Sequence record: OZ035727.1
DNA length: 44,005 bases
Direction: 5' to 3' (one strand)
Source of the DNA: Vectrevirus T205P4
The first letter of the stretch is position 1. Every line of letters begins with the position of its first letter. The position numbers were made by a program, and so were the translations under genes. Of this stretch, positions 330-25,443 are shown one piece after another. The notes under the pieces were generated by a model. It did not search any database and was not told where the DNA came from. It worked only from the letters and a program-made list of their open reading frames with translations.

Positions 330-2227
330 TGGCTAAGGCAAGAGAATCACAAGCGGAGGCTCTTGCCAGATGGGAGATGCTACAGGAGTTACAGCAGACC
401 TTTCCTTACACAGCGGAAGGTTTGCTTCTCTTTGCAGATACAGTTATTCATAACTTAATTGCAGGCAACCCTCATCTGATTCGTATGCAGGCGGATATCT
501 TGAAGTTCCTATTTTACGGACACAAGTACCGCCTCATCGAAGCGCCTCGTGGTATCGCTAAGACAACATTATCAGCAATCTATACGGTATTCCGTATTAT
601 TCATGAACCGCATAAGCGTATCATGGTTGTGTCCCAAAACGCCAAGCGAGCAGAGGAAATCGCAGGTTGGGTAGTTAAAATCTTCCGTGGCTTAGACTTT
701 CTTGAGTTTATGCTGCCGGATATCTACGCTGGGGACCGTGCATCCGTTAAGGCGTTTGAGATTCATTACACCCTCCGTGGTAGTGATAAGTCTCCTTCTG
801 TATCCTGTTACTCAATCGAAGCAGGTATGCAGGGTGCTCGTGCTGATATTATTCTAGCGGATGACGTAGAGTCGATGCAGAATGCTCGTACGGCAGCGGG
901 CCGTGCCTTGCTTGAGGAACTGACTAAGGAGTTTGAATCTATCAACCAGTTTGGGGATATCATTTACCTTGGTACACCTCAGAACGTAAACTCTATCTAC
1001 AACAACCTACCTGCTCGTGGTTACTCTGTTCGTATCTGGACTGCGCGTTACCCTTCAGTAGAGCAAGAGCAATGTTATGGCGACTTCCTTGCACCTATGA
1101 TTGTTCAAGATATGAAGGACAACCCAGCACTTCGCTCAGGGTACGGGTTGGATGGTAATAGTGGTGCACCTTGTGCCCCTGAAATGTATGATGATGAAGT
1201 CCTGATTGAGAAGGAAATCTCTCAGGGTGCTGCTAAGTTCCAGCTTCAGTTCATGCTTAACACTCGCATGATGGATGCTGACAGATACCCATTACGCCTG
1301 AACAATCTAATCTTCACCTCGTTTGGTACAGAGGAAGTCCCTGTGATGCCTACGTGGAGTAATGATTCCATAAACATCATTGGTGATGCACCTAAGTATG
1401 GTAACAAGCCTACGGATTTCATGTACAGACCTGTAGCTCGCCCATACGAATGGGGTGCTGTCTCCCGCAAGATTATGTATATTGACCCTGCGGGTGGTGG
1501 TAAGAATGGGGACGAGACGGGTGTAGCCATCGTATTCCTGCACGGCACATTCATTTATGTGTATCAGTGCTTTGGTGTACCTGGCGGATACCGAGAATCG
1601 TCCCTGAATCGCATTGTGCAGGCCGCAAAGCAGGCTGGTGTTAAAGAGGTATTCATTGAGAAGAACTTTGGTCATGGCGCGTTTGAGGCGGTAATTAAGC
1701 CGTACTTTGAACGAGAGTGGCCTGTAACTCTGGAAGAGGATTACGCCACCGGACAGAAAGAGTTGCGTATCATTGAGACGCTGGAGCCGCTCATGGCAGC
1801 CCATAGGCTTATCTTCAATGCAGAGATGGTGAAGTCAGACTTTGAGTCGGTACAGCACTATCCGCTTGAACTACGCATGTCCTACAGTCTTTTCAATCAA
1901 ATGTCGAACATAACGATTGAGAAGAACAGCCTCCGGCACGATGACCGCCTAGACGCCCTGTATGGCGCTATACGGCAATTAACTTCTCAGATAGACTATG
2001 ACGAGGTTACACGGATTAATCGCCTCAGAGCGCAGGAGATGCGCGATTACATCCATGCTATGAATACACCTCATCTACGCAGGGCAATGCTATATGGAGA
2101 TTACGGTACTGAGCGAAGAGTGACCAACACTTCCGTAGCGATGCAGCAGCGAGTTTACGGGCAGAACTGCCGAAATAAATCGGCAAGCAGAAATACACTT
2201 TCTGCAAGGATTTCAAGGACTTATTAA
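326..2227 (+). CDS. Terminase large subunit (T7 gp19-like), 633 aa
   Basis: Long ORF with ATPase-type P-loop-like region (EAPRGIAKTT) and the size and position expected of a T7-group large terminase. Confidence 0.92.
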   Translation: MMAKARESQAEALARWEMLQELQQTFPYTAEGLLLFADTVIHNLIAGNPHLIRMQADILKFLFYGHKYRLIEAPRGIAKTTLSAIYTVFRIIHEPHKRIMVVSQNAKRAEEIAGWVVKIFRGLDFLEFMLPDIYAGDRASVKAFEIHYTLRGSDKSPSVSCYSIEAGMQGARADIILADDVESMQNARTAAGRALLEELTKEFESINQFGDIIYLGTPQNVNSIYNNLPARGYSVRIWTARYPSVEQEQCYGDFLAPMIVQDMKDNPALRSGYGLDGNSGAPCAPEMYDDEVLIEKEISQGAAKFQLQFMLNTRMMDADRYPLRLNNLIFTSFGTEEVPVMPTWSNDSINIIGDAPKYGNKPTDFMYRPVARPYEWGAVSRKIMYIDPAGGGKNGDETGVAIVFLHGTFIYVYQCFGVPGGYRESSLNRIVQAAKQAGVKEVFIEKNFGHGAFEAVIKPYFEREWPVTLEEDYATGQKELRIIETLEPLMAAHRLIFNAEMVKSDFESVQHYPLELRMSYSLFNQMSNITIEKNSLRHDDRLDALYGAIRQLTSQIDYDEVTRINRLRAQEMRDYIHAMNTPHLRRAMLYGDYGTERRVTNTSVAMQQRVYGQNCRNKSASRNTLSARISRTY

Positions 2228-14562: not shown

Positions 14563-16551
14563 ATGGCTATTATTCAGAATGTACCGTGTCCTGCCTGTCA
14601 AAAGAATGGACATGATGTTACCGGCAACCATCTCATGATCTTTGATGATGGTGCTGGCTATTGCAACCGTGGTCACTTCCACGATAACGGAAAGCCATAC
14701 TACCATAAGCCCGAAGGTGGCATCGAGATAACCGAGTTGCCTATTACTGGCAATATCAAATATACACCTTCTCAGTTCAAAGAGATGGAGAAGGAAGGGA
14801 AGATAAGCGACCCTAAGCTACGCGCCATCGCACTTGGTGGTATGCGTATGAAAGACCGTTGGGAGGTTATGAATGAGCAAGAAAGGGCAGACCAAGAAGC
14901 AGAGTGGAAACTTGATGTTGAATGGTTCCTCACGCTTAAGCGTAAGAACCTTGTATCCCGACACATTCGCGGCGACATCGCAGCACTATATGATGTGCGA
15001 GTGGGCCATGATGAAGAAGGAAGAGTCAATCGTCACTACTACCCCCGCTTCGAGAAAGGTGAGCTAGTAGGCGCTAAGTGCCGTACCTTACCTAAAGACT
15101 TTAAGTTTGGTCATTTAGGTAAACTATTTGGTATGCAAGATCTTTTCGGTATGAATACTTTGTCTCACGTGTTAGACAAGGGAAGACGAAAGGATTGCTT
15201 GCTTATCGTAGGCGGCGAACTTGATGCACTAGCAGCCCAGCAGATGCTTCTTGATTCCGCCAAGGGCACTAAGTGGGAAGGACAACCATATCATGTGTGG
15301 TCTGTCAACAAGGGTGAGTCTTGCCTTGAAGAGATAGTGCAGAACCGTGAACATATCGCTCAATTCAAGAAGATTATATGGGGCTTTGATGGGGATGAGG
15401 TTGGGCAGAAGCAGAACCAACAAGCGGCTCGCCTGTTTCCTGGTAAATCCTATATCCTTGAGTATCCTTCTGGGTGTAAAGATGCTAACAAGGCATTGAT
15501 GGCTGGCAAGGCTAAAGAATTTGTGGATGCTTGGTTTAATGCCAAGTCATCTGATGAAGTCTTTGGTAGCCAGATTAAATCTATCGCATCTCAAAGGGAT
15601 AAGCTCAAGGCTGCACGTCCCGAGCAAGGATTGTCATGGCCTTGGCCTAAGCTGAACAAGGTAACGCTAGGTATTCGTAAGAACCAGCTTATCATTGTAG
15701 GTGCAGGGTCTGGTGTAGGTAAGACTGAGTTCCTTCGTGAAGTAGTTAAGCACCTCATTGAAGAACACGGTGAATCTGTAGGCATCATTTCTACAGAAGA
15801 CCCGATGGTCAAGGTGTCCCGTGCTTTTATCGGCAAGTGGATTGATAAGCGTATTGAGTTACCGCCAACCAACGACCCGAAAGAAGATGGATACCGTGAG
15901 GTGTTCGACTACACCGAGGAAGAAGCTAACGCCGCCATTGATTATGTAGCTGATACAGGTAAGCTGTTTGTAGCTGACCTAGAGGGTGACTATTCGATGG
16001 AAAAGGTAGAGCAAACTTGCCTAGAGTTTGAGGCTATGGGCATTTCTAATATCATCATTGATAACTTAACGGGGATTAAATTAGATGAGCGTGCTTTTGG
16101 TGGGAAGGTTGGTGCACTTGATGAATGCGTCAAGCGGATTGGTACTATCAAAGACCGACACCCGGTTACTATATTCCTTGTATCACACCTTACACGTCCT
16201 CCGGCAAACCGTACCCAACACGAAGAAGGTGGCGAAGTTATCCTTTCTGACTTCCGAGGCTCAGGAGCTATCGGATTCTGGGCATCTTACGCCTTGGGGA
16301 TTGAGCGTAATACAAGAGCTGAAACGCTTGACGAAAGGACTACCACGTACATCTCATGTGTCAAAGACCGCGACCAAGGTATCTGGACTGGAACCAAGGT
16401 CATGCTTAAGGGTGACATTCAAACCGGACGTTTAATGGAACCACAAGCCCGTACTAAGTCATTTGATACAGGTGAAGCAAGGCAACAAGAAGTACCAGAT
16501 TTACCGGACACTATAGAAGAGACTAACTTCGATGAAGAAAGTGAGTTCTGA
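14563..16551 (+). CDS. DNA primase/helicase (T7 gp4-like), 662 aa
   Basis: N-terminal Cys4 zinc ribbon (CPACQKNGHD...CNRGH), helicase Walker A GAGSGVGKT, acidic C-terminus ...FDEESEF ending in Phe as in T7 gp4. Confidence 0.93.
   Translation: MAIIQNVPCPACQKNGHDVTGNHLMIFDDGAGYCNRGHFHDNGKPYYHKPEGGIEITELPITGNIKYTPSQFKEMEKEGKISDPKLRAIALGGMRMKDRWEVMNEQERADQEAEWKLDVEWFLTLKRKNLVSRHIRGDIAALYDVRVGHDEEGRVNRHYYPRFEKGELVGAKCRTLPKDFKFGHLGKLFGMQDLFGMNTLSHVLDKGRRKDCLLIVGGELDALAAQQMLLDSAKGTKWEGQPYHVWSVNKGESCLEEIVQNREHIAQFKKIIWGFDGDEVGQKQNQQAARLFPGKSYILEYPSGCKDANKALMAGKAKEFVDAWFNAKSSDEVFGSQIKSIASQRDKLKAARPEQGLSWPWPKLNKVTLGIRKNQLIIVGAGSGVGKTEFLREVVKHLIEEHGESVGIISTEDPMVKVSRAFIGKWIDKRIELPPTNDPKEDGYREVFDYTEEEANAAIDYVADTGKLFVADLEGDYSMEKVEQTCLEFEAMGISNIIIDNLTGIKLDERAFGGKVGALDECVKRIGTIKDRHPVTIFLVSHLTRPPANRTQHEEGGEVILSDFRGSGAIGFWASYALGIERNTRAETLDERTTTYISCVKDRDQGIWTGTKVMLKGDIQTGRLMEPQARTKSFDTGEARQQEVPDLPDTIEETNFDEESEF
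16498..16521 (+). promoter_or_regulatory. Phage RNAP promoter P5 (GATTTACCGGACACTATAGAAGAG), inside the 3' end of the primase/helicase gene
   Basis: Perfect consensus copy about 30 nt before the helicase stop codon. Confidence 0.7.
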
Positions 16552-23074: not shown

Positions 23075-23293
23075 ATGAAAGTACAAATCGTAACCCTGCA
23101 CTGCAAGAAAGGAATTACAACTCTTGGCGGCAACACTTTTCACTCCTTCTCTGAGGGGGGCACATATGCCGACCTGCACTACATCTGGCGCGACGGACAG
23201 CACGTGGTGAACTACAGCGACCCAGCTACGGGGAAACGCCACGGCGTATCGCTTCCGGCGCATGACATTGCTCAGGTGAACACAGTTTTATAA
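23075..23293 (+). CDS. Hypothetical protein, 72 aa
   Basis: AAGGAGA RBS. Confidence 0.5.
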   Translation: MKVQIVTLHCKKGITTLGGNTFHSFSEGGTYADLHYIWRDGQHVVNYSDPATGKRHGVSLPAHDIAQVNTVL

Positions 23294-23294
23294 A

Positions 23295-23310
23295 GTCTCA
23301 CGTGTGAGAC
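23295..23310. repeat. 16-bp palindrome GTCTCACGTGTGAGAC, copy 5 (reverse orientation of the CACG variant)
   Basis: Perfect palindrome 14 nt upstream of promoter P8. Confidence 0.8.
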
Positions 23311-23324
23311 AAATCGGTGTCCGG

Positions 23325-23348
23325 TATTTACTGGACACTATAGAAGAG
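23325..23348 (+). promoter_or_regulatory. Phage RNAP promoter P8 (TATTTACTGGACACTATAGAAGAG)
   Basis: Perfect consensus. Confidence 0.8.
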
Positions 23349-23398: not shown

Positions 23399-23770
23399 AT
23401 GTTCAAGATTGAAACTATCGTAAACCGTGTTGTTAAAGGTGCTGCTCTGGTATCCGTTGAGTCTTTCATTATCGTCGATGAAGCTGATCAACTGGTAGCT
23501 GGTACTAAGGCTTACGATACCCGTGAAGAAGCTCAGGCTAAGATTGACAGCATGGGTAACTTCGCTGCTGGTCTGGAGTTCGCTCGTGCTTGCTTCCCTG
23601 AGCAGGCTGACAAAGCCCAGATCGGTAAGGCTAACATCGTAGCTGAATATCTGGATTGGATTGCTGCTGGTAAACCAGTGAAAGAAGTTAAAGCTGCTGA
23701 AGAAGCTGAAGCTCCGGCAGTAGAAGAAACCAAAGCAGAAGAAGTACTGTCTGCTGAAGAAGAATTTTAA
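23399..23770 (+). CDS. Hypothetical, probably highly expressed protein, 123 aa, Ala/Glu-rich C-terminal tail ending ...SAEEEF
   Basis: Own consensus promoter, AAAAGGAGA RBS, terminator-like hairpin downstream; acidic tail ending in Phe. Confidence 0.7.
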   Translation: MFKIETIVNRVVKGAALVSVESFIIVDEADQLVAGTKAYDTREEAQAKIDSMGNFAAGLEFARACFPEQADKAQIGKANIVAEYLDWIAAGKPVKEVKAAEEAEAPAVEETKAEEVLSAEEEF

Positions 23771-23776
23771 TTGATG

Positions 23777-23808
23777 CCCTGTCTGCCTTAGTGTAGGCAG
23801 GGTCTTTT
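23777..23808 (+). terminator. Hairpin plus U-tract after the 23399 gene
   Basis: CTGCC...GGCAG stem followed by GGTCTTTTG. Confidence 0.45.
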
Positions 23809-23834
23809 GCGTAATAGTTATTGGAGAATGAATT

Positions 23835-24107
23835 ATGCCGACTATTGAATCTCGAATTACAATGGACATTAGCTACAATGCAATCACCAGACAATACATT
23901 GGGGTGGCCTATGATTACAAAACTGGTGAGAAGCTAGTGGAGGTGAGACAATGGGATGACTATTGGTTAAGACAGAACCTCCATGATGCGGTGTCCTCCT
24001 TCTTGAAGGAGTGGCCTACATGCGACCAAACTTCGACTTCGGAGCTACAGTATCGGAAGACAATAATCTCATCCTGTGGCCAACTGAAGGTAATAGAATC
24101 GCTTTAA
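23835..24107 (+). CDS. Hypothetical protein, 90 aa, overlapping the exonuclease gene start by about 88 nt
   Basis: GGAGA RBS before ATG at 23835; the large overlap makes the real extent uncertain. Confidence 0.35.
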   Translation: MPTIESRITMDISYNAITRQYIGVAYDYKTGEKLVEVRQWDDYWLRQNLHDAVSSFLKEWPTCDQTSTSELQYRKTIISSCGQLKVIESL

Positions 24108-25048
24108 TAGATGCTGATATGCTACCCTACATCGTAGCTTATACAATCAGTGACATGACTTATGTGCGAGCCACAACTCGTGTTAAGTCAGGACAAGTCC
24201 CATCAATCAAAGATACACCTGAGTGTAAGCAAGCGTGTGACCGTGTGAACTCCTTGCTTAACTCTTGGGTATACGCAGCAGAGTGCGATGCAGCTAAGTT
24301 ATTCATGACGAAATCAGAAGCTAACTTCCGTGTTCGCCTAGCCTTCACCAAGCCTTATAAGGGTCAACGTAAGACCGAGAAGCCTCCGTTCTTCTATGAA
24401 TTGCGAGAGCATCTCTTAGAGGTTCATGGTGCAATCTTGGCAGATGGAGAAGAGGCTGATGACCTCATGAGCATTGCACAATGGGACAGCCACCGCCGCT
24501 TCCAGCAAGATACAGGTAACGAGTTCCCTATCGGTAGTCCAGAGCATAAAGCATTCTCTGATACTTGCATCGTTTCCTTAGATAAGGATTTGATGATTGT
24601 TCCCGGTTGGCATCTTCAGCCGGGTCAAGAGAAGAAATGGGTAGAGCCTATGGGTTGGCTTGAGTTACGCCGTAAGGCTAATGGTCAGGTTAAAGACCTT
24701 AAAGGTGCTGGCCTCATGTTTCATTATGCACAGATGATTATCGGTGATGATATTGATAACTATGCTGGCATACCTGGACGTGGTGCTAAATACGCCTATG
24801 ATCTTCTCAAAGATTGTAAGACAGAGAAAGAGTTGTACATGGCAGTGCTTGGTGCTTACAAGGCTAAGTTCGGACATGGACAAGTTAAGATTAAGAATTA
24901 CCGAGGTGGTTATCGTATCGGCAAGGCTTTTGACCTGATGCTCGAATGTGGTCGCCTAGCTCACATGGCAAGATTCAAAGGTGATATATGGCGAGCCGAT
25001 AAGAACCCAATCTTGTGGGGAGATGATGCGGAATGGTTAGCAAATTAA
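24020..25048 (+). CDS. 5'-3' exonuclease (T7 gp6-like, FEN/PIN-type), about 342 aa
   Basis: IALIDADMLPY aligns with T7 gp6 ILVMDGDWLVF; further acidic clusters (EEADDLMS, DKDLMIV, GDDIDNYAGIPG); AGGAG RBS before ATG at 24020. Confidence 0.85.
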   Translation: MRPNFDFGATVSEDNNLILWPTEGNRIALIDADMLPYIVAYTISDMTYVRATTRVKSGQVPSIKDTPECKQACDRVNSLLNSWVYAAECDAAKLFMTKSEANFRVRLAFTKPYKGQRKTEKPPFFYELREHLLEVHGAILADGEEADDLMSIAQWDSHRRFQQDTGNEFPIGSPEHKAFSDTCIVSLDKDLMIVPGWHLQPGQEKKWVEPMGWLELRRKANGQVKDLKGAGLMFHYAQMIIGDDIDNYAGIPGRGAKYAYDLLKDCKTEKELYMAVLGAYKAKFGHGQVKIKNYRGGYRIGKAFDLMLECGRLAHMARFKGDIWRADKNPILWGDDAEWLAN

Positions 25049-25443
25049 AATCATCGGAGGTAGCAGCTTATAAGAGGGAATTGCTAGAGAAGCAAGGATG
25101 GAGGTGCCCACTATGTGGCGGCAGTCTCAAGGCTGTTACTCCTATAAACCGTGTACTTGACCATGACCATGAGACAGGATTCTGCCGTGCTGTTGTATGC
25201 CGAGGCTGCAATGGTGCAGAAGGAAAGATTAAGGGTGTTATCTCTGGTTACGGTAAGGCTGGTAACAACCGTTACTTCCAGCTTCAATGGTTAGAGCGAC
25301 TATATGAATACTGGAAGTTACATAGTACGCCTCAGACAGATAAGTTATATCACAAACATCAAACGGAGGCAGAGAAGCGCGAGGCTAAGAACCGTAAGGC
25401 ACGCCTTGCTTATGCAAGAAAGAAGGAGGTTAAAGTTGGGTAA
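25033..25443 (+). CDS. Endonuclease VII-family (HNH-like) nuclease, putative junction resolvase, 136 aa
   Basis: WRCPLCGG...LDHDHETGFCRAVVCRGCNGAEG matches the Cys/His-Asn pattern of the T4 endonuclease VII family. Confidence 0.75.
   Translation: MVSKLKSSEVAAYKRELLEKQGWRCPLCGGSLKAVTPINRVLDHDHETGFCRAVVCRGCNGAEGKIKGVISGYGKAGNNRYFQLQWLERLYEYWKLHSTPQTDKLYHKHQTEAEKREAKNRKARLAYARKKEVKVG

Follow-up and report, generated by a model that had tools for sequence, protein, structure and literature searches.

An 88-nt same-strand overlap at the start of a Vectrevirus exonuclease gene, probably explained by 3' elongation of gene 19

Are two genes that share 88 nt of one strand in different reading frames both real, and, if so, what accounts for so long an overlap? 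The question is raised by Vectrevirus T205P4 (OZ035727.1), from which a stretch of 44,005 nt, hereafter the window, was analysed. A first-pass annotation of the window remarked on an unusually long out-of-frame overlap between a 90-aa ORF and the start of an exonuclease gene, and proposed either that the ORF is shorter or untranslated or that the overlap is regulated. Its coordinates were exact (table 1). We suggest that the overlap is probably the result of 3' elongation of the upstream gene, which added a by-product tail to the encoded protein. Overlaps of this kind are ordinary, and this one is real.

Between positions 23300 and 25100, the window shares 99.9% identity with Vectrevirus DIJ06P1 and ∼96% with coliphages K1E and K1-5. 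On nucleotide sequence, it belongs to Vectrevirus, among the SP6-like Autographiviridae of subfamily Molineuxvirinae. The order of genes (an ORF of family phrog_10319, exonuclease, endonuclease VII, and metallophosphoesterase) is that of genes 19, 20, 21, and 22 of K1-5 and K1E, and these gene names are used here. Genes 19 and 20 of K1-5 (NC_008152 / AY370674) and K1E (NC_007637 / AM084415) are orthologous to those of the window, with ∼96% nucleotide identity, and the RefSeq records of both phages annotate an identical 88-nt overlap (e.g., K1-5 15152..15424 and 15337..16365). Nothing material differs between these phages and the window, which lacks a 53-nt insertion located 5' of a hairpin upstream of gene 19. 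Overlaps are also annotated in BP12B (91 nt), VEc3 (88 nt), PM 116 (55 nt), and Pm5460 (55 nt), and the gene table of UAB_Phi78 lists an equivalent gene pair with a 94-nt overlap (PMC4837284). That table was the only mention recovered in a literature search, which found no paper discussing the overlap between gene 19 and the exonuclease gene; none of the sequence records found discusses it either. The overlap is therefore already known by annotation in close relatives, and the residual novelty lies in a possible coupling of the two genes and in the exchange of gene 19 as a cassette.

Table 1. Features at the junction of gene 19 and the exonuclease gene (positions in the window)
Feature	Position	Strand	Description
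Terminator-like hairpin	23776..23803	+	11-bp stem and 6-nt loop, then CTTTTG; from a terminator scan; 5' of the gene 19 ribosome-binding site
Gene 19 Shine-Dalgarno GGAG	23823-23826	+	8 nt 5' of the ATG; invariant in a six-genome alignment
Gene 19	23835..24107	+	ATG 23835 to TAA 24105-24107; 90 aa; K1-5/K1E gp19 homologue, phrog_10319
gp19 folded domain (predicted), residues 1-62	23835..24020	+	AlphaFold2 and codon-position variation
Predicted mRNA hairpin	23986..24021	+	CUCCUU (23996-24001) pairs with AAGGAG (24006-24011) and part of the exonuclease AUG
Exonuclease Shine-Dalgarno AAGGAG	24006-24011	+	within gene 19 codons K58-E59; 8-nt spacer TGGCCTAC
Exonuclease gene	24020..25048	+	342 aa; K1-5/K1E gp20 homologue, phrog_107, T7 gp6 type
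Exonuclease N-terminal tryptic peptide (expected)	from ATG 24020	+	(M)RPNFDFGATVSEDNNLILWPTEGNR
Overlap	24020..24107	+	88 nt; exonuclease residues 1-29 and, in the other frame, gp19 residues 63-90 and stop

Gene 19 and the start of the exonuclease gene

On sequence and structural modelling, gene 19 is a genuine conserved gene because its product matches phrog_10319 from end to end (E=3.8e-41, with residues 1-90 aligned to profile positions 1-101), its body varies in the manner of coding sequence, and residues 1-62 are confidently predicted to fold. In gene 19 bodies of the type present in the window, 10, 7, and 20 variable sites are at gene 19 codon positions 1, 2, and 3, respectively; 15 of the variable codons are synonymous-only and 12 are amino-acid-changing. 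The AlphaFold2 model (18-sequence alignment) is a compact domain in which a short helix and three beta strands are followed by a C-terminal helix (residues 42-59), and block mean pLDDT across residues 1-60 is 81-96. These findings argue against the earlier suggestion that the 90-aa ORF is shorter or untranslated. Searches of Pfam and NCBIfam with gp19 gave no match. When its predicted fold was compared to the PDB, no match had E<0.001 (the best were 1qmo_E with E=0.077 and T7 gp1.2, 7u65_G, with E=0.13), and the sole BFVD match with E<0.001 was K1-5 gp19 itself. The label of DNA repair protein given to gp19 in RefSeq and PHROG is unsupported by these family and PDB fold searches.

The layout of gp19 is a conserved N-terminus (MPTIESR), a hypervariable body, a conserved LKEWPTC segment, and then the tail. 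In every gene 19-bearing relative closer than locus L035, the MPTIESR start is at the same ribosome-binding site and the (L)KEWP(T)C segment and tail are present. The more distant loci L035-L037 and L041 have an equivalent ORF with a different beginning (MSRDIL in L035-L037) and the same WPTC-type C-terminal segment. Bodies are of several types that are barely alignable, and gp19 lengths range from 79 to 107 aa across relatives. On the evidence of two damaged copies, gene 19 is dispensable in some phages. In L030 (1157-1252), the body is deleted and MPTIESR is fused to the tail, leaving a 31-aa remnant that extends 52 nt into the exonuclease gene. In L018 (1118-1288), the normal start of gene 19 is lost and 56 aa from a GTG remain.

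The exonuclease matches phrog_107 (E=1.4e-73), a family of FEN-like 5'-3' exonucleases of the T7 gp6 type. Its score against the Pfam 5'-3' exonuclease domain PF01367 is 24 bits, under the cut-off of 40; NCBIfam matches are far under their cut-offs, and comparison of its profile to PDB sequences gave no match. An N-terminus of the form M(S)RPNFxFGATVSEDNNLILWPTxG..IALIDAD is kept across genera, and the pattern F-x-[FY]-G...WP-x-x-G...AL[IV]D[AG]D is recognisable in relatives with identity as low as 38%. Between 24020 and the ATG at 24119, which follows IDAD, the exonuclease frame of the window has no ATG, GTG, or TTG. A start at 24119 was rejected, as it would cost the protein both its conserved N-terminal segment and the first acidic motif. 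A start at GTG 24011 was likewise rejected; this codon is inside the Shine-Dalgarno, and in Proteus phages an in-frame stop directly 5' of the exonuclease start, there a GTG, separates the two. Because the N-terminus is conserved, there is no alternative start before 24119, and the Proteus stop precedes the start, the exonuclease start is, by sequence comparison, fixed at ATG 24020, and a mis-called start does not explain the overlap. The first-pass annotation had reasoned that the exonuclease needs its upstream start and that both ORFs have plausible ribosome-binding sites; both points hold, the latter with a Shine-Dalgarno at 8-nt spacing in each case. Both frames are predicted to be translated.

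Positions of gene 19 stops and the tail encoded by the overlap

Comparison of the junction across genomes, proposed earlier as a check, revealed an overlap of the same register in every gene 19-bearing relative examined, which include members of Vectrevirus, Zindervirus, Acadevirus, and Axomammavirus, Klebsiella phages, and metagenomic contigs. By these alignments, the overlap is conserved across at least four genera. Both genes are on the same strand, with the exonuclease read in frame -1 relative to gene 19. In 55 loci, the overlap ends at a gene 19 stop located 52, 55, 88, 91, 94, 118, or 139 nt inside the exonuclease gene, without exception to this register, and no gene 19-bearing genome has a gene 19 stop before the downstream start.

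Observed stop positions were compared to a null model in which the exonuclease N-terminus was randomly and synonymously recoded with the codon usage of this genome. The null allows stops at only 4, 34, 52, 82, 88, 91, 115, 118, and 139 nt, and, allowing for one-codon MSR variants, the observed positions are a subset of these. In the window, the TAA of gene 19 is formed within exonuclease codons GCT TTA ATA, which encode the A-L-I of IALIDAD. The 55-nt and 88-nt forms differ in synonymous exonuclease codons, with N-N-L-I encoded with AAT TTA ATA versus AAT CTC ATC. No lineage has a gene 19 stop at the 4-nt (ATGA) or 34-nt position, which together hold 32% of the null probability; lineages are not independent, and the route to 34 nt needs a two-step TCN-to-AGY change of a serine.

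The description of the overlap as unusually long stands in one sense and fails in another. Within a genome it is apt: no other annotated overlap of K1-5 is as long as 88 nt, the next being 38 and 29 nt. Relative to chance it is not, since 21.5% of codon positions in the long ORFs of this genome are followed by 88 nt or more without a stop in the +1 frame and 18% of recoding draws give an overlap of at least 88 nt. Given that gene 19 has no stop before 24020, nothing special thus has to be invoked for the length of the overlap.

Properties of the tail are those expected if the downstream gene dictates its sequence. AlphaFold2 assigned residues 64-90 of gp19 no secondary structure and pLDDT below 50. 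When the same nucleotides of the overlap are translated in each frame, the exonuclease frame gives a mean amino-acid identity of 0.72 and the gene 19 frame one of 0.52, and the former exceeds the latter in 77 of 91 pairs. Nucleotide diversity of the overlap is 0.197, 0.072, and 0.393 at exonuclease codon positions 1, 2, and 3, respectively, a periodicity dominated by the exonuclease frame; the most variable sites are second positions of gene 19 codons. Long and short tails are found within one body type (P0004 with 98 aa vs. P0014 with 85 aa; P0010 with 96 aa vs. P0017 with 84 aa).

A natural control is provided by two loci, L027 (722-1198) and L028 (IMGVR_UViG_3300045988_000522 / _000059), in which the ATG of the exonuclease gene is the precise insertion point of an HNH_3 homing-endonuclease gene. 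The inserted gene takes over the exonuclease Shine-Dalgarno (ctgAAGGAGtggacATG), and the exonuclease gene has a new Shine-Dalgarno and an ATGA junction with the HNH gene; this junction in L027 is the only place where the ATGA form was found. Gene 19 of both loci (99 aa) continues for ∼100 nt inside the HNH gene, and its tail is unrelated. Because the tail is predicted to be disordered, diverges faster than the exonuclease frame, has a drifting stop, and is replaced when an HNH gene is downstream, the 28 residues encoded in the overlap look like an apparently unselected read-on, a by-product presumably without function.

These observations probably reflect the following mechanism. The folded part of gp19 would end at about W60-P61, on top of the exonuclease Shine-Dalgarno and spacer. 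With gene 19 having no stop of its own, ribosomes would continue one base out of register with the exonuclease codons and terminate at the first stop that these codons happen to make, which is predicted to be the TAA in GCT-TTA-ATA of the IALIDAD motif. Continuation would add a disordered tail of 28 residues with a sequence dictated by the exonuclease. The exonuclease would initiate separately, and independently of gene 19, at AAGGAG-N8-ATG (24006-24022) inside gene 19.

Unidirectional overlaps are reported to arise most often by extension of a 3' end as far as the following stop, a route for which selection is not required (Fonseca, Harris and Posada 2013, PMC3887535), and a null model for overlap lengths is available (Sabath et al. 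2008, PMC2542354). The junction described here resembles such overlaps in having a same-strand, head-to-tail arrangement, an upstream stop inside the downstream gene, and lengths set by the possible stops. It differs in that no relative with a pre-overlap stop was found among the 55 loci, and we infer the elongation event itself from the arrangement of the two genes. The register is that of ATGA overlaps (length of 1 mod 3). Overlaps in the ATGA register are usually short. We suggest that the junction is a clean worked example of how displacement of a stop codon yields a long overlap, with the HNH insertion as its natural control.

Exchange of gene 19 bodies

Sequence identity around the junction is mosaic. 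Identity between the window and SP6, BP12B, or Kpp-61 is 98% over the first 60 nt of the exonuclease gene and falls to ∼75% thereafter. The pattern is reversed relative to CrRp3, with 79-85% identity in the first 60 nt and 95-100% after. Relative to the Proteus phages, PP1, and L035, there is no excess of identity in the overlap. Types of gene 19 body are also swapped between genera: BP12B, a Zindervirus, has the type of the window, and VEc3, a Vectrevirus, has the type of SP6. Judging from the mosaic identities and the swapped types, the gene 19 body (window 23856-24005) is a cassette exchanged between genera, with crossovers in two conserved flanks. The left flank is a block of 64 nt from the hairpin to the ATGCC of gene 19 (window 23776-23839) that is 100% identical in 20 loci with exonuclease genes that are just ∼75% identical. 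The right flank is the exonuclease ribosome-binding site and the overlap. Hypervariable, exchanged bodies are typical of host-interaction or counter-defence cassettes, and a gene 19 cassette beside nuclease genes is a reasonable place to seek such a protein.

The terminator-like hairpin in the left flank has a fold z-score of -3.3, and its stem covaries across genera, with altered sequence and maintained pairing in PP1, L035, L041, and L030. A search of Rfam with 23700-24200 gave no match. Phage-type promoters (TACTGGACACTATAG) were noted at 23329 and 26441; genes 18-22 are therefore probably one transcription unit, with the hairpin interrupting it between genes 18 and 19. The 53-nt insertion of K1-5-type genomes is located between the gene 18 stop and the hairpin (L001 1972-2029 vs. 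window 23771-23775) and is absent from SP6, BP12B, VEc3, and CrRp3, as well as from the window.

Other readings of the overlap

Among other readings, the best supported is translational coupling, which we nonetheless consider improbable. Ribosomes translating gene 19 would melt, or occlude, a hairpin that holds the Shine-Dalgarno and AUG of the exonuclease, and the lack of an early stop in gene 19 would be selected. Pairing of CUCCUU with AAGGAG is predicted in both the minimum-free-energy and centroid structures. The energy needed to open the exonuclease initiation region is 11.4 kcal/mol, ranking sixth of 52 K1-5 genes (median of ∼6.2), and it is 7.9-14.6 kcal/mol in all 20 of the tested genomes with a full-length gene 19, despite differences in their bodies. 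An initiation region more structured than most in the genome counts against a by-product view. Coupling is also favored by the finding that gene 19 never stops before the downstream start, even when the latter belongs to the HNH gene. When the upstream sequence was replaced with random sequence, the real upstream exceeded the control mean in 14 of 16 cases.

However, the shared Shine-Dalgarno, spacer, and 5' coding segment by themselves account for most of the energy: controls average 8.7 versus 10.4 kcal/mol for real sequences, an excess of ∼1.6 kcal/mol, with p<=0.05 individually in just 5 of 16 cases. These controls make the structured exonuclease initiation region less notable than it looked at first. 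The fold of the whole region (23970-24110) has a z-score of -0.8, the position of the pairing partner is not conserved, and the exonuclease Shine-Dalgarno is strong by itself. In L030, which lacks the gene 19 body, the initiation region is open (6.2 kcal/mol), implying that the exonuclease can be expressed without gene 19. Termination–reinitiation coupling of the ATGA or TAATG type does not fit the junction, in which the gene 19 stop ends 88 nt past the exonuclease start. Support for coupling is weak, and coupling would be compatible with 3' elongation. Regarding the earlier alternative of a regulated overlap, nothing at the junction requires a regulatory mechanism, and the hairpin leaves weak room for coupling.

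A broader version of this reading is a little more doubtful still. The missing gene 19 stop may have been selected because read-through opens the Shine-Dalgarno hairpin for whichever gene is downstream, exonuclease or HNH, thus tying expression of a nuclease to an exchanged cassette, with the terminator hairpin and the overlap as recombination arms.

It is very unlikely that the overlap is truly dual coding, with a functional 28-residue tail (e.g., a docking peptide) maintained, like overprinted viral genes, by selection acting on the second frame. At first sight, conservation of the tail favors this: the tail is near-identical in phages of E. coli, Salmonella, and Klebsiella with exonuclease genes that are only ∼77% identical, and at least 17 residues of tail are always present. 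In addition, exonuclease third-position diversity is 0.39 in the overlap, below that of every other 29-codon window of the gene (mean of 0.49). However, the near-identity reflects a recombination block, being absent relative to the Proteus phages, PP1, and L035 and reversed in CrRp3, and the 20% drop in third-position diversity coincides with the same mosaic block in sliding-window identities and was not taken as a sign of dual coding. The faster divergence of the tail, its predicted disorder, variability at second positions of gene 19 codons, toggling of its length within body types, and its wholesale replacement upstream of the HNH gene also argue against selection in the second frame. Overprinted regions of small viruses (phiX174, the MS2 lysis gene) are alike in having two frames on one DNA and a disordered segment encoded in the overlap, and disorder is described as common in overlapping regions (bioRxiv 10.1101/229690). 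They differ from the junction of the window, in which the second frame lacks conservation of its own and encodes a C-terminal appendix and no functional protein body.

A positional parallel is in T7. Gene 5.9 of T7 encodes an inhibitor of RecBCD, and gene 6 encodes the exonuclease. As with gene 19, a small non-essential gene is directly 5' of an exonuclease gene, the start of which it overlaps. At 14 nt, the overlap in T7 is far shorter, and gp19 resembles T7 gp5.9 in neither sequence nor profile; the analogy is one of position alone.

Still less credible is that a single frame is translated, with gene 19 being spurious or the exonuclease beginning 3' of 24107. Annotations offer some encouragement for this reading, as the small ORF is unannotated in the records of SP6, PP1, and Kpp-61 and the CrRp3 RefSeq record places the exonuclease start at a TTG downstream of the gene 19 stop, and L030 and L018 have lost gene 19 or carry a damaged copy. 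But the ORF is open from the same ATG and ribosome-binding site across divergent bodies, has equivalents in L035-L037 and L041, varies predominantly at third positions, and is predicted to encode a confident fold. On the side of the exonuclease, the absence of a start codon from 24020 to 24119 and the loss of conserved residues entailed by a later start are equally contrary. A programmed -1 ribosomal frameshift yielding a gp19-exonuclease fusion has the correct relative frame and is nevertheless the least credible of all, as the overlaps of 14 genomes contain neither an X XXY YYZ heptamer nor a homopolymer run of at least 5, no significant structure is predicted downstream (23970-24110), the exonuclease has a strong Shine-Dalgarno and ATG of its own, and in Proteus phages a stop in the exonuclease frame is directly 5' of its start.

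With the overlap real and both genes retained, two practical points follow for annotation of these phages. The exonuclease start should be kept upstream; the TTG start in CrRp3 RefSeq (NC_047920; L003 2223-2280) drops 19 conserved residues, and the sequence has the normal ATG and a 55-nt overlap. The small gene 19 ORF should also be kept rather than omitted, as it is in the three records named above. At the exonuclease position, the Pm5460 record has only a truncated 'endonuclease' (946..1596).

Other junctions and genes near the overlap were also inspected. The exonuclease gene shares its last 16 nt with the endonuclease VII gene (window 25033-25048), as in the K1-5 annotation. In a mechanical list of ORFs, the metallophosphoesterase ORF (379 aa) begins at ATG 25304, implying an overlap of 140 nt with endonuclease VII (window 25304-25443). 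The start in K1-5 RefSeq is a TTG equivalent to window 25436, with an overlap of 8 nt, and the PHROG alignment begins at residue 42; the 140-nt overlap is thus probably artefactual, produced by a frame that is open upstream. Lastly, the product of gene 17 (72 aa, window 23075-23293), a small hydrophobic protein, scores 23.8 bits against Plant_vir_prot (PF01307), relative to a Pfam cut-off of 22.6, which is probably a chance match.
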